Assembly: GCA_964493715.1 (NCBI GenBank)
Contig: CAZBPC010000070.1
Location: 1-17,496, forward strand
DNA length: 17,496 bases
Direction: 5' to 3'
DNA from: an uncultured archaeon
Lineage (GTDB): Archaea; Asgardarchaeota; Lokiarchaeia; Sigyniarchaeales; SOKP01
Shown: piece after piece, positions 3,598-17,496 of the stretch
How positions within the stretch are numbered: the stretch's first letter is position 1
Layout of the letters: every line of letters starts with the position of its first letter
Notes under the pieces: model-generated
Database searches by the model: none
What the model saw: the letters and a program-made list of their open reading frames with translations, nothing else
Told to the model about the DNA's origin: nothing
Made by a program: the position numbers and the translations under genes

Positions 3598-4458
3598 TTA
3601 GCCAGTTGGAGAGAATACTCCCCCGAAAACTAACCATGCTAAAAACGTTTTAGAGACAAGACTAAGTATAATGTACATTTTTTCACCATATAAATAATCT
3701 TTCCATTTACCTACGCCTTTATATTGGAGAATCATATTAATCGCAAATGTATTAAAAAAGAATAATTCAATTGCATAAATCCAATATACAAACCCGGGAA
3801 TCTCTCCACCATTTACTCCTGTGTTAATGAAATATGCTGAGATAACGATCCAAGGAACTGCACCAGCGACTACTCCAAGATAGTAAGCAGTCCATCTAAC
3901 TTTTTCCTTTAATTTTCTCGTATATACATTATGGAGTTCCATCATTAGACCAAACATGTTCATCAAGGCATTAGATATAAAGATCATAAATAAAGCCCAG
4001 AAATCTAAGACTCCAAAGAATAAAGCGATTAAGACTATCATAATTGAGCTTGAAAAAGCATATTCAAACCATCGAACTTTATTAATTCCTTTCTTTAGAT
4101 CTCTATTATATACTTTATTCAATGGGTAAGCAATTAGAAAGTGTGCGATTGCAGATAAGAGAAGGAACGTTCCAACAAACGCACCAAGAGCCGTGAAAGC
4201 AAATATTACTTCTGGATTTGGAGAAAGTGTAGGTGGGGGACCAAGATCAAATTCTAAATAGAAAGTATAGATATTTACCGAAAAACTCAAGAAGGGTAAA
4301 AATCCAAAGAGTACCATCAATAAACCTTGTACTAGATGCAAGATCATGGCATTACGATTAAATTTTTTCAGGTATTCAAAAGTTATCTCTGATTTTGGGA
4401 TTAACCATTCATCTTCATTTTTTATAGAATTCATAATCATAATATTTCGCTTTAGCAT
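3598..4458 (-). CDS. heR: Heliorhodopsin (HeR)
   Basis: Seven hydrophobic segments with HeR signatures: LHLVQ (H41/Q44), SAIAH (S102/H106), RWFEY counterion (R129/E132), FGLMME, FFNTFAIN, and GEKMYIILSLVSK with retinal Lys K270. Alternative starts are ATG 4440 and 4434. Confidence 0.95.
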   Translation of the reverse strand: MLKRNIMIMNSIKNEDEWLIPKSEITFEYLKKFNRNAMILHLVQGLLMVLFGFLPFLSFSVNIYTFYLEFDLGPPPTLSPNPEVIFAFTALGAFVGTFLLLSAIAHFLIAYPLNKVYNRDLKKGINKVRWFEYAFSSSIMIVLIALFFGVLDFWALFMIFISNALMNMFGLMMELHNVYTRKLKEKVRWTAYYLGVVAGAVPWIVISAYFINTGVNGGEIPGFVYWIYAIELFFFNTFAINMILQYKGVGKWKDYLYGEKMYIILSLVSKTFLAWLVFGGVFSPTG

Positions 4459-6350: not shown

Positions 6351-6492
6351 AATTTCAATCTCATTATTTTATTTACCAATATCTAGCTAAAAGATACGAA
6401 ATTTTTTAAAAATTATGAATACAATTTAAAATAATTAAAAACAAGAAGAAGTATTTATTAAAATGATTATATATGAATGAGATGACAAAAAA

Positions 6493-7280: not shown

Positions 7281-7293
7281 TGATTTTAATTCG
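7281..7293 (+). promoter_or_regulatory. Putative Lrp/FFRP-type operator TGATT-TTA-ATTCG upstream of iorAB
   Basis: 12/13 identical to the site at 17373-17385 (minus strand) and 11/13 identical to the site at 13064-13076. Confidence 0.4.
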
Positions 7294-7336
7294 ATACTAA
7301 ATATTATTTATTTTAGTAAAGATAGCTAATGTGATA

Positions 7337-9280
7337 ATGAATATTCATAAATTAATGAATGATACTTCAGGAAAGGTAAATTTTTTATTAGGAAATGAAG
7401 CAATTGTCCGTGGAGCTTTAGAAAGTGGGGTGGATGTCTACACATTTTACCCAGGTACTCCAAGTTCAGAAATTGGTGAGATTTTCATGCGAATTCACAA
7501 TGATATTGGAATGAAGTGGGTGGAATCGAGTGTAAATGAAAAGGTTGCTATAGAAATCGCTGGAGCAGCATATGCGAGAGGAGCTACTGCCATGGTTGGG
7601 ATGAAAAATGTTGGCTTAAATGTTGCCTCTGATCCGCTATTTGCGATTGCAACTACTCGTCCTAAAAACTTTAACTCCGCTTTGGTTGTTATAGTAGCAG
7701 ATGATCCCCAAGCGCATTCCAGCGCCGTAGAGATGGACTCAAGATATTATTTAAAACTGTTAAAAATTCCAGCATTAGAACCAAGTGATCCTCAAGAATG
7801 TTTAGATTTTACAAAAAAAGCCTTTGAGATTTCTCGAGAATTAAAGCTTCCTGTAATTGTAAGGACTGTCACGATGGTTTCTCATGCGAGAAGTAATGTT
7901 GTATTTGGAGATTTAAAAAGTTCAGATATTTCTAATGAATTTGATTTATCAAAAGAAGTAAATGTGGCTTCAAGGCTATACTTTCTTGAGTTAAAGGATG
8001 ATCAAATTTACTCTCGAATGAATAGGGCTTTACACATGTCAGAAGAGAGCTCTTTAAACAAAATTGTTAATCTAGAAGACGAAAATAAATACAGATTAGG
8101 AATCGTTACAAGCGGAGTGTCATATCACTATGCTTTAGAGGCTCTTGATCATTTAGGTATCTCAATTCCCATTCTTAAACTCGGTTTTATCAATCCTTTT
8201 CCAGTTAAAGTTGTTACAGAATTTCTTAAGAAGTTTGATAAAGTACTTGTTATAGAAGAAATGGATGCGTTTCTAGAAGACCAGATCCTTGCTGTTGCAA
8301 AAATTGCTGACATTAATACGCAAATTTATGGTAAATTTCCTTTTTCTTATTCGAAAGAACAATCTCTATTACCACTTGTAGGAGAGTTAAATCCTACAAT
8401 AATAAATTTAGCCTTGAAAAAAGTATTGGGGAAAGATTTTACTCCAAATCAAAATGAAGTGAATTCGATCGAACTCGAAACAATGAAGAGACTTCCACTC
8501 TTGTGTTCAGGATGTCCGCATCGCACTACGGGTTATGCTTTGAAGGAAGTTATCAATAAAATAAAATCATTAAAAGGAGTGGATACATATTTTTATCAAG
8601 ATATTGGATGCTATACGATGTTGTCTTATCCTCCTCTTGGATTTGCTAATGTTAAGTATTGCATGGGGTCCAGCATTGCAACAGCTCAAGGTGTTGCTCA
8701 CACAAGCAATGATTTGAACATTGCTATCATAGGAGACGGAACCTTTTTTCACGCGGGCATTCCTGCACTTATAAATGCAGTTCACCATAAAGCACCGATA
8801 TTAGTTTTAATATTAGATAATGGTTGGATTGGAATGACAGGACAACAGCCTCATCCTGGAAGCAATATCATGCACTATCAAGAAGGTATTTATAAAAAAA
8901 ATATTGATTTAGAATCCTTATTAATCGGAATGGGAGCGAACGTAACTTTAATCGACCATAGACCTGAAAGTGATTCTTATTTTAAACATTTAAAAAAACT
9001 TATCCAAAGTAAATGTTTTGAAGTAATCGATAATCAGTCTTTACGGGTAATTTTGATCCGAGATGAATGCATTCAAAAAATTGTCAAACGAAGGACTCCA
9101 ATATTAAGGCAAGTGAATTTTGAATTATGTAATAAATGTGGTTTATGTTACACTCAATTTGCTTGTCCATCAATAAATTTAATCGATGATTCTGTTATTA
9201 TTGATTCAAATTCATGTTTAGGATGTGGGATTTGCGAAGAAATCTGCCCTAACAATGCAATTAACAAGGAGGGGAAATGA
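7337..9280 (+). CDS. iorA: Indolepyruvate:ferredoxin oxidoreductase alpha subunit
   Basis: LLGNEAIVRGA, YPGTPSSEI, NEKVAIE, MKNVGLNVASD, DDPQAHSS, LCSGCPHR, DIGCY, CMGSS, TPP motif GDGTFFHAG...LDNGWIGMTGQQPHP, and C-terminal ferredoxin motifs. The start could be GTG 7331, ATG 7337 or ATG 7355. Confidence 0.93.
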   Translation: MNIHKLMNDTSGKVNFLLGNEAIVRGALESGVDVYTFYPGTPSSEIGEIFMRIHNDIGMKWVESSVNEKVAIEIAGAAYARGATAMVGMKNVGLNVASDPLFAIATTRPKNFNSALVVIVADDPQAHSSAVEMDSRYYLKLLKIPALEPSDPQECLDFTKKAFEISRELKLPVIVRTVTMVSHARSNVVFGDLKSSDISNEFDLSKEVNVASRLYFLELKDDQIYSRMNRALHMSEESSLNKIVNLEDENKYRLGIVTSGVSYHYALEALDHLGISIPILKLGFINPFPVKVVTEFLKKFDKVLVIEEMDAFLEDQILAVAKIADINTQIYGKFPFSYSKEQSLLPLVGELNPTIINLALKKVLGKDFTPNQNEVNSIELETMKRLPLLCSGCPHRTTGYALKEVINKIKSLKGVDTYFYQDIGCYTMLSYPPLGFANVKYCMGSSIATAQGVAHTSNDLNIAIIGDGTFFHAGIPALINAVHHKAPILVLILDNGWIGMTGQQPHPGSNIMHYQEGIYKKNIDLESLLIGMGANVTLIDHRPESDSYFKHLKKLIQSKCFEVIDNQSLRVILIRDECIQKIVKRRTPILRQVNFELCNKCGLCYTQFACPSINLIDDSVIIDSNSCLGCGICEEICPNNAINKEGK

Positions 9281-9861
9281 TGGAATCATCAAATTATACA
9301 ATAGTAATTACGGGATTAGGAGGTCAAGGCATAATACATTTCATTCAGGTTTTAGGTGAAGCAGTAATGGATAAAGGATATTCGGTGATTACTTCTGAAA
9401 CTCACGGTCTAAGTCAACGAGAGGGGAAAGTGAAATGTTTTCTCCGCTATGGAAATAAAATATTAGCCCCGATACCGATGAATGGTTCAGCAGATATCAT
9501 AATTGCACTTGAAAAAAGTTGCATTCTAGATGTATTAAACTTTGCAAAACTAGATAAGAGCACTGAATTGATAATTTCTGAATTTAAAAAACCCATAAAA
9601 AATCAAAAATACATTAGTGATGATTATTTCAACCGTACTCTCCCAAATTTTTCAAAAAATATCCATTATATTACGATTACTGAAATAAAGAATGATATTA
9701 GATTACTAAATACATTGATACTGGGCTATATCATATCTTTTTTACCACTAAGTTATCAAGATCTCCAAAAATCTCTAAATAGCTATTTCTCAGGGGTTAA
9801 TTTGGAAGCAAATCTTAAAGTACTCCAAATTGGACGAATAATAAGGCGAAAAAAAGATTAA
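9277..9861 (+). CDS. iorB: Indolepyruvate:ferredoxin oxidoreductase beta subunit
   Basis: ITGLGGQG, SETHGLSQREG, ADIIIALE, NTLILG, ANLKV. ATGA overlap with the iorA stop and SD GGAGG at 9268-9272 (the second ATG at 9280 is equally plausible). Confidence 0.88.
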   Translation: MMESSNYTIVITGLGGQGIIHFIQVLGEAVMDKGYSVITSETHGLSQREGKVKCFLRYGNKILAPIPMNGSADIIIALEKSCILDVLNFAKLDKSTELIISEFKKPIKNQKYISDDYFNRTLPNFSKNIHYITITEIKNDIRLLNTLILGYIISFLPLSYQDLQKSLNSYFSGVNLEANLKVLQIGRIIRRKKD

Positions 9862-9874
9862 AGGCAACTTCGCA

Positions 9875-11236
9875 TTAGAGGTGTTTTTGTAAGGATATAA
9901 TTCGTTTTTCTAATTTCTTAATTTGAGATTCATTCTCAATTGCTCCTCCACTATTACCCAAAATTGCAATTGCTGACTGGAAGTTTTGAATTGCATTAAA
10001 ATAATCTTTCTTCTTTTCAGCTTTTTCACCGTATTCTAAACAGAAGTCAATTTCTAACGATTTTATTTTTTTATCAAGTTCAAGGATAATAAATGAAATT
10101 TTTCCAATTAACAGTTCAAAATTAAAACCCGTAGCTAAATAGAGTGCTTTTTCATATTCTTTTTGAGCTTCTTTATATGCTAAAGCTTTTTCAGCGGTTT
10201 CTCCTTTCTTGATAAAATTTTCCATTAACTTTTTCGCTTCTTCAGCATCCAATGTGCGAGCTTTTTCTTTTAAATTGTTCATAGCGTCATCATTTGCCAG
10301 TATTGACGAAATTAAGTCATTATCGGCAATTCTTTTTGCACGAGTCTCTTGAAATTTTTTAACTTCAACCGCTAAATTTTCTATTTTCGAAGGAATAATG
10401 ATGTTCCTTTCTAATAGTTGGTAAATTTCATACAATATTATTGATGGATGAGAGTTGACTACTGGTTGTACTTTATCGATGAGATTATTTATGAAGAAGA
10501 AATTTTTGGCGTTTATTAGTTCATTGGCAAAATCAATCACAGCCTTTTGAATGATATTCTTATTAATTATTTCCAAATCCCCAGGTGAAATCATATGGCT
10601 TAAAACCATTGGAAAAACCAACTTGATGTTGAAAGCCTCGATTATAAAATCAATTGTATCATCAAAGTACAACATCCCTGATTTTAGGAGACGTTCAATC
10701 TTTTGATTGTATATTCTTTCATATTCAAATAAAAATTCAACTACTTTTTGTTTCAAACTTTCTGAAGGTTTTCCATCTAATACTAAACAGATTCTAATGA
10801 AGTTACCGTTTTTAATAAGTAAATTAAATGTGTCATATTGAAGTTCATAGAAGTTATGGTTATCATTTCTCGTTTCTATAGATCTTGAACTTGAAAAGGT
10901 AATATTAGCTTGCATGAAACCTATTAATAGATCAATATTAAGGTTAGTTCCTGAGACGGGATAGTTCAATATGAGCAGTCCTGAATCCTTAGTTTGTAAT
11001 ATCACCGATTTTATGTTTAAAACATCCATGAACTTGTACCAAATCAATGATTGCTGCATCTGAATCCGTTTTTCTTCAGAATCCATCATTGATATTTTAG
11101 GATTTTGAGAAGTATCAAACCCTGCTTTAGCGATATACGTTTTTACGCATTCTTTACAGCGATCAGGATAAAAACTACAATCTTCTTTCTCTTTTCCGCA
11201 ATTAAACCCTATTCGACTAACTTGGAAATATACCAT
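9875..11236 (-). CDS. Asgard-type multidomain protein: N-terminal Cys4 motif, longin-like domain, wHTH-like region and C-terminal TPR/MIT-like helices
   Basis: C13-x6-C20-x6-C27-x2-C30. Longin-like pattern IKSVILQTKDSGLLI...DLLIGFMQANITFS...ELQYDTFNLLIKNGNFIRICLVLDGKPSESLKQKVVEFLFEYERIY. Helical repeats GETAEKALAYKEAQKEYEKAL and GEKAEKKKDYFNAIQNFQSAI. Confidence 0.55.
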   Translation of the reverse strand: MVYFQVSRIGFNCGKEKEDCSFYPDRCKECVKTYIAKAGFDTSQNPKISMMDSEEKRIQMQQSLIWYKFMDVLNIKSVILQTKDSGLLILNYPVSGTNLNIDLLIGFMQANITFSSSRSIETRNDNHNFYELQYDTFNLLIKNGNFIRICLVLDGKPSESLKQKVVEFLFEYERIYNQKIERLLKSGMLYFDDTIDFIIEAFNIKLVFPMVLSHMISPGDLEIINKNIIQKAVIDFANELINAKNFFFINNLIDKVQPVVNSHPSIILYEIYQLLERNIIIPSKIENLAVEVKKFQETRAKRIADNDLISSILANDDAMNNLKEKARTLDAEEAKKLMENFIKKGETAEKALAYKEAQKEYEKALYLATGFNFELLIGKISFIILELDKKIKSLEIDFCLEYGEKAEKKKDYFNAIQNFQSAIAILGNSGGAIENESQIKKLEKRIISLQKHL

Positions 11237-11477
11237 TACAATCTTTAATTTTTATATTTATATCTTATACCTTTCAACCTATTATGAATTCCATATTATT
11301 AAGATTTTGGAGATCACGAAAGGATTTGTATCGTCAGTACGAAATTTAAAGTATCATTTTAAATCAAAATGTAATTCAAAATTTCATATGTTTAATATTG
11401 GTACTTTAAGATTAACCTTTAAATATGAGGGAATCTCCTAAATAAAATAATCCAATTTTTTAAAAATGTGATTTATA

Positions 11478-12743
11478 TTGGAAAAAATTACTTCCAAAAA
11501 AGAAATTTCAATTCTATACATATACATTACCCTTATGATTTTTGCGTCAGTATCAGTGATTTCTCCCAAGAATATAGTAGCACCGAGTAGTGAGATTATC
11601 GTTCCTGGTTCGGAATTACATTCTTCTTTTGCAAGCTCGGGCACAAATGACATGAGTCCTTCAAACCTTTTGCCAGGAGATATAATTCTATTAGGAACGG
11701 ATGATACCTTTTTTGATTATCTCATTCCTGGTAAATGGTCTCACACGGTCATAGTAGGGGGAATTGCAGGATTTCATCAAATTTGGGCAACTGAAGAAAA
11801 TACTTGGGTCCCAACAGGAGAAACATGGGTCGTTCATTCGACAATGGATGATATGGGTTCTGGTTTAAGAACTTCCAGATTCAATAATGTGGTCAATGAT
11901 CATGCTGGAAATGTAGTTGCAATGAGAATATTAAAACCTGGCGGTGCCTTGCTATCCTCATCTGAAAGAGCTGCAATCGTAAATTTCGCAGTTTCAAAAA
12001 TAGGTCATGATGAAGGATACGATTGGAATTGGCTTGGGAAACAAATTGGAATTGATACTGCAGATCCAGAGATCGCCCCAGATGGATATTATTGCTCAGA
12101 ATTGGCTTGGGCAGCGTATAAGTCAGTAATAGGAATAGACCTCGATGGAGATTTTTCACCTTTTAACATTGGAGTTTCACCAGAAGACCTATACTGGTCA
12201 CAATATGCTCAAGTAATAGCTTTAGAAATGAATTCGGATCCAAATGGTAATAGCGTTCCTGGAGGGGCTTATGCTGTTGACGCGTCTAATGATCTCTATA
12301 AAATGACTGTTTTTGTTGATGAAGTTTATTACGACGATGAGCATGAAGGTTGGCTCATGGGAGATGGTGAGATGTATCTTAAGTTTTGGATAGGAGAAGC
12401 TTATTTCCCAAGCTGTGCTGCTGGTGGCGATTTAAATGATAATCAATTAGACAAGATAGATGACGCTAATGATGATTGGGAATCAGCAGGTAAAAAAGAA
12501 GCACTGGATTGGAATAATTATCACTATGCTCTATTTTCATATAATTCATATTGTAAGGTTAGAGTACAAGCCTCGGAATATGATTCTACTTCAGGTGATG
12601 ATGATTATCCCGCCTTCCAATGGTGGTGGAGTCCGTCTACATGGCATGGTTATACTAATAACGGCTGGTATTGGTCAGGGTATCGATATGATGTGGGAGA
12701 TTGCCGCTACACAATCTACTTCAGAATAGATTCAGTTTATTAA
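11478..12743 (+). CDS. Exported permuted NlpC/P60 (YiiX/YaeF, C92-like) cysteine hydrolase with acidic C2-like C-terminal domain
   Basis: N-terminal hydrophobic signal/TM segment. LLPGDIIL...GKWSH (His) precedes YYCSELAWAAYK...GIDLD...VSPEDL (Cys), the permuted order. The C-terminal region is beta-rich and Asp/Trp/Tyr-rich. TTG start with SD-like GTGAT at 11468-11472. Confidence 0.8.
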   Translation: MEKITSKKEISILYIYITLMIFASVSVISPKNIVAPSSEIIVPGSELHSSFASSGTNDMSPSNLLPGDIILLGTDDTFFDYLIPGKWSHTVIVGGIAGFHQIWATEENTWVPTGETWVVHSTMDDMGSGLRTSRFNNVVNDHAGNVVAMRILKPGGALLSSSERAAIVNFAVSKIGHDEGYDWNWLGKQIGIDTADPEIAPDGYYCSELAWAAYKSVIGIDLDGDFSPFNIGVSPEDLYWSQYAQVIALEMNSDPNGNSVPGGAYAVDASNDLYKMTVFVDEVYYDDEHEGWLMGDGEMYLKFWIGEAYFPSCAAGGDLNDNQLDKIDDANDDWESAGKKEALDWNNYHYALFSYNSYCKVRVQASEYDSTSGDDDYPAFQWWWSPSTWHGYTNNGWYWSGYRYDVGDCRYTIYFRIDSVY

Positions 12744-12757
12744 ATTTTAAAAATTCC

Positions 12758-12779
12758 TTTTTTTTTTAATTTTTTTTTT
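12758..12779 (+). terminator. Double oligo-T terminator
   Basis: T10 (12758-12767), AA, T10 (12770-12779), starting 15 nt after the stop at 12743. Confidence 0.6.
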
Positions 12780-13063
12780 AAAATATGATATAAAGATCGA
12801 ATTAAATTTTTAGAATACAATTTTGCTAAGGATTTCCTCTTTATTGTGGTATTGAGGTTGAAAATATTAGCTATGATATTATTAATTCGGAACTCAAAAT
12901 CAGATATTCTTATGATTTCAGATACAACTAAGTATTTTGTCTCGAAATCTATTCGGCATCCCACTATTTTCCCAGAATCTAGTTCGTTAGATTTATAATA
13001 GATAAAAGAGATTATTTATTTGTAATTTACCAAAAAAATTAATTTCATATAAAAAAATAGAAA

Positions 13064-13076
13064 TGAATTTTATTCG
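13064..13076 (+). promoter_or_regulatory. Putative Lrp/FFRP-type operator TGAAT-TTT-ATTCG upstream of gdhA
   Basis: 5-3-5 semi-palindrome with a TTT centre. The 20-mer 13061-13080 is 18/20 identical to the reverse complement of 17369-17388. Confidence 0.5.
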
Positions 13077-13092
13077 TTAAATAATAAAAAAA

Positions 13093-14424
13093 GTGGGGAA
13101 AATAATTTATAAAGAAGCCATTGTAATTAGGAATGAAATTGAGGATTCATCTAAGTTAAAGAAACCAGAGAGGGTAAGTAGAAATCCCTATGAAATGGCA
13201 AAAAAACAGATTGATATAGTAGCGAAAGAAATGGATTTAGATGTGAACATTATAAAATATTTGAAAAAAGTCGAACGGTCACTAATAGTATCCATTCCGG
13301 TTGTAATGGATAATGGAGATCTAGAGGTTTTTGAAGGGTTCCGAGTACATCATTCTACGGTACGTGGTCCAGGAAAAGGAGGAATTCGATTTTCACCAGA
13401 TGTTTGTTTGGATGAAGTAAAAGCGCTAGCAACGTGGATGACATGGAAAAATAGTTTACTTAATCTTCCTCTGGGGGGTGCAAAAGGGGGTGTTTGTGTA
13501 GATCCTAGAAAATTATCGATTAAGGAGCTTGAGAGGTTAACTAGAAGATATACGGCCGAAATTATTAATGTAATTGGCCCAGATATTGACATACCTGCTC
13601 CAGATGTAGGGACAGATAAAAGGATTATGGCATGGATTATGGATGTATATTCGATGCAAAAAGGGCGTTCAATTCCTGGGGTAGTGACTGGTAAACCAAT
13701 AGAAATAGGTGGATCTGTAGGGCGAGAAAGTGCTACAGGAATGGGCTTGTATTTTGTAATTGATGCTTTATACAAAAAATTGAATTTAAAACTATCAAAT
13801 GCTACTGTAGTTGTTCAAGGATTTGGAAATGTCGGAGGAACTATTGCTAAGATTTTATTTGAAAAAGGAACGAGTATTTTGGCAGTTTCTGATGTTAGTG
13901 GGGGTTTATATAATAAAGAGGGTCTGGATATTAATAAATTACTCAAGTGGAGAGATCAAAACCGTTTATTGAAAGACTTTATCGAGGAAGATTATATATA
14001 TGTTCAAAATAATGAACTTTTAACAATAGATTGCGATATCTTGGTACCAGCAGCAATTGAGAACCAAATAACCCTCTCAAATGTCGATAATATCAACTGT
14101 GCAGTTATTTTAGAAGGGGCAAATGGACCAACTACACCTGAAGCGGATGAAGTATTGAAAGAAAGAGGAATAATTGTCGTTCCAGATATATTAGCCAATG
14201 CTGGAGGCGTTTGCGTCAGTTATTTCGAATATATTCAGGATATACATAGTTACTTTTGGAAGCTGGATCGGATAAATACTGAGTTGGAGAGTATTATGGT
14301 TAGTACCTTTGAAGAAGTGTATCAACTTTCTGTAAAAAGAAATGTGACCTTGAGAACGGCAGCCTACATTATTGCTATATCAAGACTAGCGAGAGCTATT
14401 GAATTAAGGGGAATATTTCCTTAA
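13093..14424 (+). CDS. gdhA: Glutamate dehydrogenase (Glu/Leu/Phe/Val dehydrogenase family)
   Basis: RGPGKGGIRF, MTWK, GGAKGG, DIPAPDVGT, VTGKP...GGS.GR..ATG, Rossmann VQGFGNVG, EGANGPTT, PDILANAGGV.VSYFE. The GTG start is uncertain because it gives a ~30 aa extension before NPYEMA. Confidence 0.96.
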   Translation: MGKIIYKEAIVIRNEIEDSSKLKKPERVSRNPYEMAKKQIDIVAKEMDLDVNIIKYLKKVERSLIVSIPVVMDNGDLEVFEGFRVHHSTVRGPGKGGIRFSPDVCLDEVKALATWMTWKNSLLNLPLGGAKGGVCVDPRKLSIKELERLTRRYTAEIINVIGPDIDIPAPDVGTDKRIMAWIMDVYSMQKGRSIPGVVTGKPIEIGGSVGRESATGMGLYFVIDALYKKLNLKLSNATVVVQGFGNVGGTIAKILFEKGTSILAVSDVSGGLYNKEGLDINKLLKWRDQNRLLKDFIEEDYIYVQNNELLTIDCDILVPAAIENQITLSNVDNINCAVILEGANGPTTPEADEVLKERGIIVVPDILANAGGVCVSYFEYIQDIHSYFWKLDRINTELESIMVSTFEEVYQLSVKRNVTLRTAAYIIAISRLARAIELRGIFP

Positions 14425-14429
14425 GTAAG

Positions 14430-15314
14430 TTAATCTTCAATTTTTAATTTTATTTTTGAGGTTCTTTTAAAAATTTCAATAATACTAAATACATTCATTT
14501 GTGACCTTATCCCTAAAATCGGTTTTATTTCTTTATTAATCAATTCCCATAATTCTTTCTCATTTATCGTAATGATTTGTAAAAGGAGATTAAACTCTCC
14601 TGCGATTCCTGCGATAAGTTGAATTTCTTCAAAATATTTCAATTTATTAGATATTTCACTTATATTTGAAGGATCGACTGATAGACTAATAATAGCTATA
14701 GTTTCATAACCAACTTTATACGGATTGATAAGTGTATCAAATTTTTCGATAATTCCATCACTTATCATATTTTGTACACGATTGTGAATTGTACTTGCTG
14801 CAAGATGGATTCTTTTACTTATTTCTTTAAAGGATATTTTATAATTCTCTTGTAAAATATTGAGGATCATCTTATCTTTACTATCCAATGAAGGTATACT
14901 AACTTTCTTCAAATTTTTTTGAACTTTTATTTTATGCCTTTCAATTCCATATAAAATAGAGCGAGCTAATATAGTTTCATTTAATTCTCCCTTTAATAAA
15001 TAATCTTGAATTCCTCGATTCAAGGAATTTAGAGCGATTTCTTTATCATCATATCCAGTTAAGATAATAATTGGATATTTTAATGTATAGCCTAAAATGC
15101 CAGATAGAGTAGAATCTTTATCACTATCTGGTAAGGTTAGATCTAACAATATAACGTCAACATTTTTCTTTTTAATATAATCTAAACCTTCAGAAAGTCG
15201 CGTAAAAGTTTCAATTTCAAAAGGACTTAAGGAAGATTTTTTTAATAGTTCCTTAATAAGACGTATATCAGCGGGATTATCTTCAATCAATAATATTTTC
15301 AAATATTTTCTCAT
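14430..15314 (-). CDS. Response regulator: receiver domain fused to a full Lrp/AsnC transcription factor (wHTH + RAM)
   Basis: REC with E11-D12, phosphoacceptor D58 (DVILLDLTLPD), IILTG and DYLLKG. Then the Lrp HTH LDSKDKMILNILQEN...FKEISKRIHLAASTIHNRVQNMISDGII, linker INPYKVGY, and a RAM-like region IAGIAGEFNLLLQI. Confidence 0.88.
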   Translation of the reverse strand: MRKYLKILLIEDNPADIRLIKELLKKSSLSPFEIETFTRLSEGLDYIKKKNVDVILLDLTLPDSDKDSTLSGILGYTLKYPIIILTGYDDKEIALNSLNRGIQDYLLKGELNETILARSILYGIERHKIKVQKNLKKVSIPSLDSKDKMILNILQENYKISFKEISKRIHLAASTIHNRVQNMISDGIIEKFDTLINPYKVGYETIAIISLSVDPSNISEISNKLKYFEEIQLIAGIAGEFNLLLQIITINEKELWELINKEIKPILGIRSQMNVFSIIEIFKRTSKIKLKIED

Positions 15315-15366
15315 CTCTTATAAAGCAAGTTTAAATAAATTAGGTTTTAATTATTTTAAATAATTT

Positions 15367-15399
15367 TGAATAATTTTCATTTAATATGTAATTATTTCA
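15367..15399. promoter_or_regulatory. Tandem putative Lrp/FFRP-type sites TGAAT-AAT-TTTCA (15367-15379) and TGTAA-TTA-TTTCA (15387-15399)
   Basis: Two 13-bp semi-palindromes, 20 bp apart start-to-start, 53-85 nt upstream of the REC-Lrp start in the divergent regulator/kinase intergenic region. Confidence 0.35.
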
Positions 15400-15590
15400 G
15401 TAATAGATTATTTTAAATTGATGGTTAATGCAGAAATTGAATAATCATAAATTTTAATTCGGAATATTATCTTAAAAAACGAATAAAATTTTAATTTATT
15501 CAATTTTTTACTATGAAATTTAAATATATAATTTCACTTTCATAAATCAAGAGAAAGAATATTAACTTCACAAATTTTAAAGAAACCTTT

Positions 15591-16673
15591 ATGAGATTAT
15601 CAAATCAAAAAGAAGGCCTAATTATTCTCACAATTTCAATATTGTTCATTATTTCATGTATATTAATTATCTATTTCGAAGTGTTGCTTAAAAATCACTT
15701 TTTTATTGTAAATTTCTTATATATCCCAACAATTTTGTCTTGTTTATATTGGAAAAGAAAAGGTTTATTCGTACCTATTATCCTAATTGTTTTCTTATTA
15801 GTAGTCCAAATTAGTCAAGGAGTATCATTCTTAGGAGAAAATGCTATTAATGGTCTTTCGATAAAGATTTCGATATTAATCGTTGGAATCATAGTAGCGG
15901 TTCTATCTGAAAAGATTTTAAAAAAAGAAATCGAGTTAAATGATATAATTAAAGATTTGAAGCGCTCAAACGAGGATCTTCAGCAATTTGCTTATGTAAC
16001 TTCCCACGATTTACAAGAACCTCTTAGGGCAATCATTAGTTTTTCTCAACTCTTAGAGGAAAAGTATCATAACAAATTAGACAAGGATGGTAAGGAATTT
16101 ATTTATTTTATTACTGATGGAGCAAAACGTATGAATATACTTATAAAAGACTTATTGAGTTATTCTCGAATTATTACTCAAGCAAAACCTTTTGAATGGC
16201 ATAATCTAGAACCAATTTTAAAAGATGCTTTATTCAATTTACAAGAAGCAATTAAAGAAAGCGGTGCTGTTATTACTTATGATCCCCTACCCACATTGAA
16301 GGTTGATCGAATTCAATTTTTACAATTATTTCAAAATTTCCTGAGTAATGCAATTAAATTTCGTAAAAATGAGCCTCCGGTTATTCACATTGGGGTTAAT
16401 CGATTAAATAATAAATGGGTGTTTTCAATTAAAGATAATGGTATAGGAATAGATTCCAAATATCATGATCGCCTTTATAATATTTTTTATCGCTTGCACA
16501 CCAAAGAAGAATATCCTGGAACAGGGATTGGTTTGCCTATATGTAAAAAAATTATTCAGAGATATGGTGGAGAAATATGGGTGGAATCTGAACTTGGAAA
16601 AGGTTCTACATTCTTTTTTACAATCATGACTAAAAAAGTTAAAAATCATCAGAGGGAAAATTATTTATCATGA
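15591..16673 (+). CDS. Membrane-bound sensor histidine kinase (4 N-terminal TM segments; Cph1/bacteriophytochrome-type HisKA-HATPase core, no photosensory module)
   Basis: H-box FAYVTSHDLQEPLR, N-box QLFQNFLSNAIKF, G1 IKDNGIGI, F-box IFYRLH, G2 YPGTGIGLPICKKI, and ESELGKGSTFFF. Four hydrophobic segments in aa ~9-106. Confidence 0.93.
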   Translation: MRLSNQKEGLIILTISILFIISCILIIYFEVLLKNHFFIVNFLYIPTILSCLYWKRKGLFVPIILIVFLLVVQISQGVSFLGENAINGLSIKISILIVGIIVAVLSEKILKKEIELNDIIKDLKRSNEDLQQFAYVTSHDLQEPLRAIISFSQLLEEKYHNKLDKDGKEFIYFITDGAKRMNILIKDLLSYSRIITQAKPFEWHNLEPILKDALFNLQEAIKESGAVITYDPLPTLKVDRIQFLQLFQNFLSNAIKFRKNEPPVIHIGVNRLNNKWVFSIKDNGIGIDSKYHDRLYNIFYRLHTKEEYPGTGIGLPICKKIIQRYGGEIWVESELGKGSTFFFTIMTKKVKNHQRENYLS

Positions 16674-17095
16674 ACGATAACAGTAAGAAATACTTTAAGA
16701 TTTTGCTTGTGGAAGATAATCCCGCAGATATCAGCCTTACAAAAGAAGCTCTAAATAAAAATGATGTTATTACTGAAGTATACGTAGTCCATAATGGAGT
16801 AGAGACATTACACTTTTTAGAAAAAAAAACTCGCCCCGACTTAATCTTTTTGGATCTCAATTTGCCAAAAATGACTGGTTTGGAAGTGTTAAAAGAAATT
16901 AAAGAACATGAAGAATACAGAAGAATTCCTGTTGTAATTTTAACGATATCTGCTAACGAGGAGGATTTAAAAAAAGCATATGATCTTCACGCTAATTGTT
17001 ATGTAAACAAACCATTGGAAATCAAGGAATTTTATGAAATTATGAAATCTATTACAGATTTCTTTTTTAAAACAGTTAGACTCTCAAATATTTAG
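16670..17095 (+). CDS. Single-domain response regulator, Rcp1-like
   Basis: ILLVEDNPAD, PDLIFLDLNLPK.TGLEVL, IPVVILTIS...AYDLHANCYVNKP. ATGA overlap with the kinase stop. Confidence 0.92.
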   Translation: MNDNSKKYFKILLVEDNPADISLTKEALNKNDVITEVYVVHNGVETLHFLEKKTRPDLIFLDLNLPKMTGLEVLKEIKEHEEYRRIPVVILTISANEEDLKKAYDLHANCYVNKPLEIKEFYEIMKSITDFFFKTVRLSNI

Positions 17096-17139
17096 AGTTA
17101 TGTAAGAAAAAGGACTCAAAAAATAGTAGAATTTAAATA

Positions 17140-17358
17140 TTATTTAATAGCTAAAACTACATTTTTATCGTGATATGTGGCATCTAAGGTTAATTTGATT
17201 TTAGGTTGATTAAAGTCTTCAATCGAATTACAATTCCAAGGTCTACAAATCCGATCATCACCAAAAACTACACCATGACAGATTGTATATTCTTCACAGG
17301 AATGGTAAATTCTCGTTCCTAAACTATATTCCATATCACATTTTGGACACTTGACCAA
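17140..17358 (-). CDS. Small Cys/His-rich putative metal-binding protein (72 aa)
   Basis: MVKCPKC...HSC...CHG...C...WNC. The ORF-track GTG (17367) lies within an SD-like AAGGTGA, 5 nt before the in-frame TTG at 17358, which is the more likely start. The ORF fills otherwise empty space. Confidence 0.65.
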   Translation of the reverse strand: MVKCPKCDMEYSLGTRIYHSCEEYTICHGVVFGDDRICRPWNCNSIEDFNQPKIKLTLDATYHDKNVVLAIK

Positions 17359-17372
17359 TTTTTTCACCTTAC

Positions 17373-17385
17373 CGAATAAAAATCA
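17373..17385 (-). promoter_or_regulatory. Putative Lrp/FFRP-type operator TGATT-TTT-ATTCG upstream of small Cys-rich gene
   Basis: Same orientation and similar distance to the start codon as the gdhA site, and 12/13 identical to it. Confidence 0.45.
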
Positions 17386-17496
17386 TTTATTATAATAACT
17401 AAATTTCAATTATTTTAGTTGATATACGTTATAATATATTAATTTATTTTATTTAAATTCATCGTAATAAATTCGGTTATTTTAAATTCTATCATA

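Follow-up and report, generated by a model that had tools for sequence, protein, structure and literature searches.

Archaeal Lrp proteins bind dyads of the form abcdeWWWedcba, as set out in PMC2715240 (Yokoyama et al. 2009). In that account, FL11 (PH1519 of Pyrococcus OT3/horikoshii), which was solved with DNA, recognizes a 13-bp dyad with the half-site TGAAA, and its SELEX optimum is CGAAA with an AAT/ATT centre. Ala34 and Thr37 of FL11 contact T at position a (C is predicted there in the SELEX-optimal duplex), Ser36 contacts G at b, and His39 contacts the c pair. PMC2995911 describes an FL11 octamer that covers long DNA, and several FL11 sites in the protein's own and a metabolic promoter. 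According to the same review, Lrp-type sites have centre-to-centre spacings of two or three helical turns, and activator sites lie just upstream of the BRE. The archaeal Lrp activators Ptr2 (Methanocaldococcus jannaschii), LysM, and Ss-LrpB (Sulfolobus) use a dimer site just 5' of the promoter, a few bases from the BRE and tightly constrained in position, with more regularly spaced sites farther upstream; in Ss-LrpB, ∼100 bp of DNA wrap around three dimers, and autoregulation turns from positive to negative with concentration (PMC2995911). DNA-binding response regulators are rare in archaea, as stated in a census (PMC5847659). FilR1 of Methanosaeta, LtrR of Methanococcoides burtonii, and the Bat-type regulators of haloarchaea combine a receiver with an HTH output and are encoded beside a kinase.

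The window analyzed here, a whole stretch of 17,496 nucleotides, encodes a hybrid response regulator (REC-Lrp) with a receiver, an AsnC-type wHTH, and a RAM domain. Its gene also lies beside a kinase gene, but FilR1, LtrR, and the Bat-type regulators have other HTH classes and domain orders (wHTH-DUF1724-REC, HTH-REC). The passages of the census (PMC5847659) considered here mention neither a REC-Lrp/AsnC architecture nor a phased operator of this geometry. The locus resembles the FL11 system in four of six DNA-contact residues (A34, S36, T37, and H39), in the AAT centre of the palindrome upstream of REC-Lrp, and in having several sites in the regulator's own promoter and in a metabolic promoter. 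In contrast, FL11 has no receiver domain and is switched by amino acids alone, its target is lysine synthesis whereas here it would be the catabolic gene gdhA, and the present sites stand on both sides of the TATA box at fixed distances of 30/31 and 90 bp. The half-sites also differ: position e is A in FL11 and T here, a change that goes with those at residues 24 (F/Y for L) and 35 (A for E). The departures from FL11 at half-site positions d and e go together with those at these two residues. Ptr2, LysM, and Ss-LrpB likewise have no receiver domain, and their further sites lie upstream, whereas the third site here lies 90 bp downstream, in the predicted leader.

The REC-Lrp regulator and its gene cassette

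Asgard archaea are the closest known archaeal relatives of eukaryotes, and to our knowledge transcription control in this group is almost unstudied. Glutamate dehydrogenase is an entry step of the amino-acid fermentation on which these organisms are thought to live. In the window, a glutamate dehydrogenase gene (gdhA) is part of a self-contained cassette with REC-Lrp, a histidine kinase, a stand-alone receiver, and a small Cys/His protein (Table 1). About half of the genomes of this one Asgard genus carry the cassette: REC-Lrp orthologues were found in 19 of 40 genomes, and gdhA orthologues in the identical 19. The kinase gene is divergent from the REC-Lrp gene and adjoins it in the relatives' loci as well; from its N-terminal sequence, we read the kinase as a probable membrane protein. 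The stand-alone receiver gene follows the kinase gene in 9 of 10 relatives' loci, the exception being a locus whose contig stops within the kinase gene (L038). The small Cys/His protein matched no family in a Pfam search, and in three genomes (G013, G018, and G021) an Lrp module is joined to its first ∼50 residues. This DNA was found in no RNA run.

Table 1. Candidate regulatory sites and genes in the window
Feature	Positions	Strand	Remark
iorA-upstream match (TGATTTTAATTCG)	7281..7293	.	1 mismatch
gdhA operator O3 (CGAAATCTATTCG), candidate	12943..12955	.	31 bp upstream of O2
gdhA operator O2 (AGAATCTAGTTCG), candidate	12974..12986	.	4 nt before TATA box; absent from the initial annotation
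Putative gdhA TATA box (ATTTATAA)	12991..12998	+	role inferred from sequence
gdhA operator O1 (TGAATTTTATTCG), candidate	13064..13076	.	90 bp downstream of O2, 16 nt before start codon
gdhA, glutamate dehydrogenase paralogue with N-terminal extension	13093..14424	+	Pfam ELFV_dehydrog, E 3.5e-79; its N-terminal domain, E 2.5e-56
REC-Lrp hybrid response regulator (receiver, AsnC-type wHTH, RAM domain)	14430..15314	-	Pfam Response_reg, HTH_24, HTH_AsnC-type, AsnC_trans_reg_3
Candidate operator between REC-Lrp and kinase genes (TGAATAATTTTCA)	15367..15379	.	near-perfect palindrome
Initially annotated site (TGTAATTATTTCA)	15387..15399	.	A/T-rich TATA-like block
Initially annotated partial site (CGAATAAAATTTT)	15480..15492	.	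weak
Histidine kinase, hydrophobic N-terminus	15591..16673	+	Pfam HisKA and HATPase_c
Stand-alone receiver protein	16670..17095	+	Pfam Response_reg, E 5.5e-25
Small Cys/His protein (75 aa)	17140..17367	-	conserved motif CPxC...HxC...H...C
Cys-gene operator O1', candidate (TGATTTTTATTCG on gene's strand)	17373..17385	.	5 nt before start codon
Putative Cys-gene TATA box (ATTTAAATA on minus strand)	17450..17458	-	4 nt from O2'
Cys-gene operator O2', candidate (CGAATTTATTACG on gene's strand)	17463..17475	.	90 bp upstream of O1'
O3', first 4 bases (CGAATAAAATATG on gene's strand)	17493..17496	.	runs past window end

REC-Lrp matched the Pfam models Response_reg (E 2e-16), HTH_24 (E 9.1e-16), and HTH_AsnC-type (E 5.1e-12). 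Its RAM domain scored 24.8 bits with AsnC_trans_reg_3 (cut-off, 24.4) and 22.5 bits with PF01037, which is under the cut-off of 25. Residues 142 to 290 match solved Lrp proteins, the closest being DARP (PH0140 of Pyrococcus horikoshii) and 7fby, with E of about 1e-24. DARP is described as a local feast/famine regulator with a small gene set, an amino-acid racemase cluster and neighbouring amino-acid catabolism genes, which resembles the present locus, but it is without a receiver domain, and its recognition stretch has Pro34 and Arg39 in the alignment. Alignment of REC-Lrp to FL11 (E 3.6e-19) placed F24, A34, A35, S36, T37, and H39 at the DNA-contact positions. In the receiver, Asp58, Thr86, and Lys108 are invariant in 121/121 family members, as are the contacts A34, S36, T37, and H39 in the Lrp part, while E11 and D12 are present in all 106 members that have the N-terminus. 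Among the 11 Lrp-like ORFs of this genome, REC-Lrp alone carries the Ser36-Thr37-His39 triad.

Dyads in the window and in orthologous promoters

The initial annotation had listed eight 13-mers, one before iorA and the others around these genes, as candidate Lrp-type operators. All eight were found letter for letter where it placed them, and all lie outside ORFs of at least 80 aa; the site at 12943 overlaps two short ORFs only (74 and 50 aa), the longer of which has no Pfam match. The loose pattern YGWWWNNNWWTCR fits seven of the eight and gave 7 matches in the 1,970 bp of non-ORF DNA of the window, against 0.82 expected from the genome's non-ORF rate, and 6 matches against 6.44 expected within the window's ORF DNA; since it was fitted to the sites, its count is circular. 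We therefore scanned non-ORF DNA with a stricter consensus, YGAATNNNATTCR (YGAAT-N3-ATTCR), allowing ≤1 mismatch. The window contains 6 matches (6416, 7281, 12943, 13064, 15367, and 17373) against 0.55 expected (Poisson P = 2.5e-5, or 0.006 after correction for 226 equal blocks). None of the other blocks has more than 5 matches, and the contig has the highest match density among all contigs with at least 1 kb of non-ORF DNA. The excess is local: genome-wide, the motif is no more frequent outside ORFs than inside, at 0.29/kb in non-ORF DNA versus 0.28/kb in ORF DNA. Any regulon is therefore local, and single sites carry little weight; the motif is unsuitable for predicting targets by genome scan and marks this cassette only.

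In a genome of 31% G+C, where the motif is equally frequent inside and outside ORFs and the loose pattern was fitted to its sites, the whole set might be chance matches in AT-rich intergenic DNA that were chosen post hoc, and two or three of the eight sites do look so. As an account of the whole set, chance is highly improbable in view of the local excess and of three further observations. The same dyad was recovered independently of the initial annotation, from relatives' promoters only (26 regions, 8,335 bp, window excluded), where the commonest perfect 5-3-5 palindromes are TGAAT-N3-ATTCA (14) and CGAAT-N3-ATTCG (7), followed by AAAAA (5). Position, spacing, and sequence are kept in 19/19 gdhA loci while the flanks diverge, and none of 11 paralogous gdh promoters carries the dyad. 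Five of the eight annotated sites (12943, 13064, 15367, 17373, and 17463) are conserved in orthologous promoters, which already contradicts chance for these five. Recent copying of the promoters is opposed by the 64 to 75% identity between promoter groups and the 55 to 67% identity of the regulator.

Three dyads, O3, O2, and O1, precede gdhA in 19/19 genomes of the genus that bear it, although these loci are kin and collapse to about nine promoter groups, otherwise 64 to 75% alike. Phylogenetic footprinting upstream of gdhA orthologues, as the initial annotation had suggested, found O1 in all 19, with 0 mismatches in 15 and 1 in 4. Across the nine promoter groups, O1 is the top conservation peak (15.5 bits; mean, 6.6), and the unit TTCG-N4-ATTTAT is the second (10.1 bits). 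This unit belongs to O2, which in every locus is a dyad ending in TTCG, followed by 4 nt and then a TATA-like box; its right arm is invariant and its left arm degenerate, with a perfect GAA..TTC core in 14/19 loci. The distance from O2 to O1 is 90 to 92 bp in 17/19 loci and 102 bp in 2. O3, a dyad with ≤2 mismatches and a perfect GAA..TTC core in 17/19 loci, lies 30 to 31 bp upstream of O2 in all 19, a spacing that is partly built in because the search was confined to offsets 29 to 33. The spacers of O2 and O3 often contain G or C, unlike optimal FFRP sites.

The promoter of the small Cys/His gene has the same 30/90 layout. Its proximal dyad, O1', is present with ≤1 mismatch in 9/9 loci, and a pattern search found a TATA-abutting dyad 90 to 92 bp from it in 7/9. 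O3' stands 30 bp upstream of O2' with 2 mismatches; the final 55 nt of the contig are the initial 55 nt of contig C37, where the O3' 13-mer occupies positions 52 to 64. The gdhA and Cys-gene promoters are the only non-ORF places in this genome where two dyads are spaced by 90 bp. Of 18 relatives' genomes, 16 have a TGAATAATATTC[A/G] palindrome upstream of REC-Lrp, the exceptions being G007 and G052, and a second dyad lies 61 to 63 bp from the palindrome in 9 of 17 relatives. O1 and the REC-Lrp palindrome have the feast/famine form abcdeWWWedcba, with centres mostly A/T, and the spacings (O3 to O2, 30 to 31 bp; O2 to O1, 90 to 92 bp; Cys gene, 30 and 90 bp) agree with a phasing by two or three helical turns.

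Probable assignment of the dyads and a proposed model of the circuit

We conclude that the YGAAY-N3-RTTCR dyads are very probably operators of the adjacent REC-Lrp. A 13-base palindrome that recurs at fixed 30/90 spacings at the promoters of gdhA, the small zinc-finger (Cys/His) gene, and REC-Lrp is most likely the site of REC-Lrp, whose contact residues would fit a YGA half-site, judging from the published FL11 contacts. The core idea of the initial annotation, that 13-bp Lrp-type dyads belong to REC-Lrp, thereby gains the 19/19 co-occurrence, the fixed spacing, and the contact residues, all of them drawn from sequence comparison.

The dyads could also be real conserved cis-elements with another reader, be it a zinc-finger-Lrp paralogue, the small Cys/His protein, another Lrp-family protein, or basal factors, in which last case the TTCG-N4-TATA unit would be an unusual BRE. 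The cassette is inherited all-or-none as a unit, so co-occurrence with the dyads does not single out REC-Lrp; moreover, the fused zinc-finger-Lrp proteins of G013, G018, and G021 share the AASTIH recognition stretch and could bind these sites too, and by our own reading the CG of the right arm of O2 falls where a BRE would begin. However, neither a zinc-finger-Lrp fusion nor a second Lrp-like ORF with Ser36-Thr37-His39 occurs in this genome, and archaeal Lrp proteins are reported to bind dyads of just this 13-bp 5-3-5 form (PMC2715240). A BRE role cannot account for O1 and O3, which are not beside the TATA box. Furthermore, TTCG-N4-WTTTAWA is no general element of promoters, since non-ORF DNA of this genome has only 10 copies of it. 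A single copy, gdhA O2, serves a gene, and another is the 55-nt overlap as it recurs on C37. A reader other than REC-Lrp is rather improbable.

That the proximal dyads act in RNA, forming small hairpins in the gdhA and Cys-gene 5' leaders with an effect on translation or stability, seems to us very unlikely. O1 and O1' lie 5 to 47 nt before start codons and downstream of the predicted TATA boxes, hence are probably transcribed, and could on paper fold into a 5-bp stem with a 3-nt loop. Such a stem, A/U-rich, would probably be weak, and the gdhA arms are conserved as specific bases (G2 and C12) and not as compensating pairs. Nor would an RNA role explain O2, O3, and the REC-Lrp palindrome, which have the same sequence but lie upstream of or between TATA boxes.

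Returning to REC-Lrp as the reader, we infer binding, phosphotransfer, the TATA and transcription-start positions, the oligomeric state, and the sign of regulation as follows. The kinase would phosphorylate Asp58 of REC-Lrp, and Lrp dimers would read each 13-bp dyad through the Ala34/Ser36/Thr37/His39 surface. With three dyads at 0, +30/31, and +120/121 bp in the gdhA and Cys-gene promoters, O2 would touch the BRE/TATA region, while O1 would lie in the predicted 5' leader, directly before the start codon. This spacing would suit the joint binding of O2 and O1 by one higher oligomer, either an octamer or a stack of dimers, with the core promoter wrapped around it, and the palindrome between the REC-Lrp and kinase genes suggests autoregulation. 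As to sign, our guess is a two-state switch in which O3 and O2, upstream of the TATA box, activate, as in Ptr2, LysM, and Ss-LrpB, and added engagement of O1 represses. The state may be chosen by phosphorylation, and perhaps also by an amino acid bound to the RAM domain.

A bolder version, which we regard as doubtful, makes REC-Lrp a phosphorylation-gated, nucleosome-like promoter wrapper with an amino-acid input through RAM and a docking Cys/His protein. Phosphorylation of Asp58 would drive the Lrp dimers into an octamer-type ring, the first dimer gripping O2 and the fourth O1, exactly 90 bp apart, so that the TATA box and transcription start would be spooled onto protein; unphosphorylated dimers at O3 and O2 would recruit TBP/TFB. 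Its fusion to an Lrp module in three genomes hints that the small Cys/His protein may be a zinc-finger sensor that docks on the Lrp core and can detach from it. If REC-Lrp acted in this manner, one protein would set Asgard glutamate catabolism from both a membrane signal and the amino-acid state inside the cell. On either version, sequence alone yields a complete candidate circuit, with a kinase, a receiver-Lrp fusion, a 13-bp operator, three target promoters of fixed geometry, and a glutamate dehydrogenase output. All its parts are short and synthesizable, so that binding, its dependence on phosphorylation, and the 90-bp spacing are testable in vitro without culture.

Sites outside the conserved set

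Beside the five conserved sites, the initial list held three that fared less well, and it had missed one gdhA site (O2). It had placed iorAB in the regulon on the strength of the match at 7281. Nine iorA orthologue promoters from REC-Lrp-bearing genomes showed no conserved site (one has a match with ≤1 mismatch, elsewhere), and the window's iorA site has no partner dyads at -31 or +90; a different 1-mismatch match recurs in 4 of 9 iorA promoters of genomes where the regulator was not found. The match at 7281 is probably due to chance, or species-specific; as far as the compared promoters indicate, iorAB is outside the conserved regulon, and the regulon first proposed was too wide. The accompanying caution that weaker copies might be chance matches was right for this site and for 15387, which we rejected as an operator: it has 3 mismatches here and 4 to 8 at the equal offset in 16 relatives, where it is not a dyad. 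At the weak site 15480, the closest relative (G023) has 1 mismatch against 2 here, and the six other loci with the kinase-proximal promoter block have 3 to 5 (best within a few bases).

The gdhA-REC-Lrp cassette and local enrichment of the dyad

The window is an entire 17,496-bp contig, C70, of a genome of 3.68 Mb (31% G+C, 160 contigs), and its initial gene calls were borne out by Pfam annotation (see the table). The order gdhA, REC-Lrp (opposite strand), histidine kinase, stand-alone receiver and small Cys/His protein gene (Cys gene; opposite strand) is kept across the examined loci of relatives, and we refer to it as the cassette; iorAB lies outside it in other genomes. The last 55 nt of the window (17442-17496, contig C70) are identical to positions 1-55 of contig C37 (L186), so the two contigs probably join at this overlap. 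In C37, the overlap is followed by ∼160 nt of non-coding sequence, after which comes the 3' end of a minus-strand ORF that resembles short-chain dehydrogenases.

Genes of the window and fused Lrp proteins of relatives
Feature	Position	Strand	Annotation
iorA	7331-9280		Pfam
iorB	9277-9861		Pfam
gdhA	13093-14424		Pfam
REC-Lrp (receiver + AsnC-type HTH + RAM)	14430-15314	minus	Pfam
HisKA/HATPase kinase	15591-16673		Pfam
Stand-alone receiver	16670-17095		Pfam
75-aa Cys/His protein	17140-17367	minus	without family in Pfam
Zinc-finger-Lrp type fusion	L034 11162-11755 (reoriented locus)	minus	
Zinc-finger-Lrp type fusion	L035 11472-12065 (reoriented locus)	minus	
Zinc-finger-Lrp type fusion	L037 2769-3362 (reoriented locus)	minus	

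The genome holds three more gdh paralogues, all lacking the N-terminal extension of the cassette gdhA: a divergent pair (C31:17805-20544; 41% and 71% identity to the cassette gene) and one at C111:5313-6578 (55%). The C31-type arrangement is seen again beside the cassette in G018 and G021. A heliorhodopsin gene (3598-4458 (-); PF18761, E 3.8e-88) lies ∼10 kb from the cassette, and we saw no connection between it and the dyads.

The initial annotation had proposed that eight 13-mers of 5-3-5 type define a regulon of iorAB, gdhA, the regulator/kinase pair and the Cys gene, and all eight are present at their positions. We counted motifs in non-ORF DNA, defined by leaving out ORFs of ≥80 aa, so that the 75-aa gene is included; it amounts to 445,788 bp genome-wide, of which 1,970 bp belong to the window. 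The pattern YGWWWNNNWWTCR, which was derived by fitting to these sites and matches seven of the eight, occurs 7 times in the non-ORF DNA of the window versus 0.82 expected, and 6 times in its ORF DNA versus 6.44 expected. With ≤1 mismatch, YGAATNNNATTCR occurs 6 times in the non-ORF DNA versus 0.55 expected (Poisson P 2.5e-5; 0.006 allowing for 226 equal-size blocks). Every other block has ≤5 matches, and C70 has the highest density among contigs with ≥1 kb of non-ORF DNA. Among 5-mers of the window's non-ORF DNA, ATTCG shows the strongest over-representation (10 versus 2.55), and among 8-mers CGAATTAA does (4 versus 0.12). Genome-wide, the motif is no commoner outside ORFs (0.29/kb) than inside (0.28/kb). 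The signal is therefore local, and a genome scan is unable to find targets.

Relatives provided a view of the motif that leaves the window out. Across their 26 promoter regions, the perfect 5-3-5 palindromes that occur most often are TGAAT-N3-ATTCA (14) and CGAAT-N3-ATTCG (7), followed by the AAAAA type (5). We use "dyad" for the form YGAAY-N3-RTTCR. One further single-mismatch match in the window, TGAATACAATTTA at 6416-6428, was absent from the initial list; it sits between an acyl-CoA dehydrogenase-like gene and a 248-aa ORF, and the closest relative has a different gene order.

Dyad geometry at the gdhA and Cys-gene promoters

Among the 40 genomes searched, gdhA orthologues (≥70% identity, with the N-terminal extension aligned) were found at 19 loci, in exactly the 19 genomes that carry REC-Lrp. 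The regulator adjoins gdhA at 17 of these loci, the remaining two being at contig ends. Phylogenetic footprinting upstream of gdhA, suggested initially as a check, showed a conserved dyad in all 19 promoters. This dyad, O1 (≤1 mismatch), lies 14-27 nt before the gdhA start codon and is perfect in 15 loci. In genomes without the cassette, none of 11 promoters of paralogous gdh genes had a dyad within 160 nt. The 19 promoters fall into nine groups with 64-75% identity between groups, and when one representative per group was compared, O1 stood out as the most conserved stretch, with 15.5 bits per 13 nt versus a mean of 6.6.

The second conservation peak (10.1 bits across the nine representatives) is TTCG-N4-TATA, which marks a conserved dyad, O2, whose TTCG end is separated by 4 nt from ATTTAT, a TATA-like box. 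The window copy of O2, at 12974-12986, had been overlooked. O2 is separated from O1 by 90 bp in 12 loci, 91 bp in 4, 92 bp in 1 and 102 bp in 2. A third dyad, O3, was found 30-31 bp upstream of O2 at 19/19 loci, in a search covering offsets 29-33, where a site with ≤2 mismatches has a chance probability of ∼0.016.

The Cys gene has counterparts of these dyads. A proximal dyad (≤1 mismatch) is present in all nine loci, and a TATA-abutting dyad lies 90-92 bp upstream of it in seven loci by pattern; the other two have a degenerate dyad at 90 bp, recognized by eye. In the window, the two dyads (17373-17385 and 17463-17475) are separated by exactly 90 bp; 30 bp upstream of the distal one, a third dyad with 2 mismatches spans the window end into C37. 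The outer promoters of the cassette thus have the 30/31 + 90 plan in common, in mirror orientation. Across the whole genome, non-ORF dyad pairs 90 bp apart occur only at these two promoters.

The REC-Lrp/kinase spacer, iorA and other possible targets

Upstream of REC-Lrp, the palindrome TGAATAATATTC[A/G] was found at 31-78 nt in 16 of 18 relatives, and the window copy (15367-15379) has one mismatch. The two relatives lacking it are G007 and G052. In G007, the REC-Lrp gene (L039, G007:C78, 7973-8979) is broken into two reading frames that cover residues 3-212 and 195-285, which may reflect a decaying regulator or an assembly error; O1 of its gdhA is still perfect despite the split and the lost palindrome. 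A second dyad, of CGAAA-N3-TTTCA type, lies 61-63 bp kinase-ward of the palindrome in 9 of 17 loci and is degenerate in the window. No conserved partners were found at +/-30 or +/-90 bp, only at +61 to +63.

Two further 13-mers initially listed in this spacer were compared with relatives. In 16 of these, the sequence at the offset of 15387 departs from the dyad at 4-8 positions; it is an A/T-rich, TATA-like block, which we do not retain. The 13-mer at 15480 is weak: mismatches number 1 in the closest relative and 3-5, at the best placement within a few bases, in the six others that hold the kinase-proximal promoter block. A second promoter-like block, CTAYGRW + ATTTAAATA, is located at 15511-15526, ∼65 nt before the kinase gene, and is kept in eight distinct loci with a long REC-Lrp/kinase spacer.

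The proposed membership of iorAB was rejected after comparison of 18 iorA orthologue promoters, as no conserved site was found in the nine from REC-Lrp-bearing genomes. One of these nine has a 1-mismatch match, at another position, and the closest relative has none. Among the nine from genomes where the regulator was not found, four have a common, different 1-mismatch match. Moreover, the iorA site of the window has no partner dyad at -31 or +90. We treat it as a chance match or a species-specific gain.

Perfect non-ORF matches in the genome number four: O1 of gdhA, C57:16489, C101:2003 and C131:5033. The C57 site, between an Orn/Arg-type decarboxylase gene and a TPR-SIR2 gene, was rejected as a target, since its only recurrence is in G011 (a close, near-identical relative, 86% complete, in which REC-Lrp was not found) and it is missing from G023, which has the regulator. 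A 1-mismatch match, C16:14394, lies upstream of a serine hydroxymethyltransferase gene. We conclude that the conserved regulon coincides with the cassette and comprises gdhA, REC-Lrp and the Cys gene, probably together with the kinase-receiver operon.

The REC-Lrp family and candidate readers of the dyads

Of 40 genomes sampled from the genus, 19, counting that of the window, have a full-length REC-Lrp orthologue (55-67% identity); in 16 genomes from other families of the order only partial matches were found. The family comprises at least 120 clusters at ≥53% identity, named only "response regulator" or "winged helix-turn-helix regulator"; those with a named source are labelled as Asgard MAGs, and the relatives found with the regulator protein carry the labels Promethearchaeota, Lokiarchaeota, Hermodarchaeota or Hodarchaeota.

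Yokoyama et al. 2009 (PMC2715240) describe archaeal Lrp proteins as binding abcdeWWWedcba. In the FL11-DNA crystal described there, Ala34 and Thr37 contact T at a (C is predicted in the optimal duplex), Ser36 contacts G at b, His39 the c pair, and Leu24 and Glu35 the d and e pairs. HMMER alignment to FL11 (PH1519, native numbering) gives F24, A34, A35, S36, T37 and H39 in REC-Lrp. These FL11-type contact residues predict a half-site starting Y-G-A, as observed. The single arm difference, T at e here and A in FL11, accompanies two changed residues. All 121 of 121 family members have A34, S36, T37 and H39, and the receiver residues D58, T86 and K108 are likewise without variation. Among the 11 Lrp-like ORFs of the genome, only REC-Lrp has the Ser36-Thr37-His39 triad.

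The review PMC2995911 describes Lrp sites two or three helical turns apart and places the activator sites of Ptr2, LysM and Ss-LrpB immediately before the BRE in a tightly constrained position. It also reports ∼100 bp of DNA wrapped by three dimers of Ss-LrpB, whose effect changes sign with its concentration, and an FL11 octamer that covers long DNA stretches. O3 and O2 of gdhA match the activator layout, and O1, which stands three 30-bp steps (90 bp) downstream of O2 and inside the predicted leader, would fit an oligomer wrapping the core promoter. From this combination we propose that phosphorylation might control a switch between an activator state (O3 + O2) and a wrapped state with O1 engaged; the TATA boxes and transcription starts are themselves sequence predictions. 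As an operator, the dyad is of a kind common among Lrp proteins; the new features are the fusion of a receiver to Lrp and the fixed 30/90 spacing by which the dyads bracket the promoter. We found no description of the REC-Lrp architecture or operator in literature searches or in the consulted passages of the 2018 census of archaeal two-component systems.

The small Cys/His protein belongs to no Pfam family and has no ESM Atlas match ≥0.9, and its AlphaFold2 model (mean pLDDT 52.9) is too poor for a fold search. A search for longer, fused relatives found none, yet three fusions are visible in the loci: in G013, G018 and G021, its first ∼50 residues continue, as a fusion, into an Lrp HTH+RAM module (198 aa). 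This module has 44-48% identity to the Lrp part of REC-Lrp, with the recognition stretch AASTIH in both. The fused protein is a possible second dyad binder in those three genomes, not in this one. Elsewhere in the window's genome (G000:C14:9189-9231), a pair of TTAAT-N3-ATTAA/ATTCA dyads with a spacing of 30 bp immediately precedes a further Lrp-like ORF on the minus strand (C14:8739-9158), whose recognition stretch is TEATVR; this pair may serve another Lrp paralogue as its operator.
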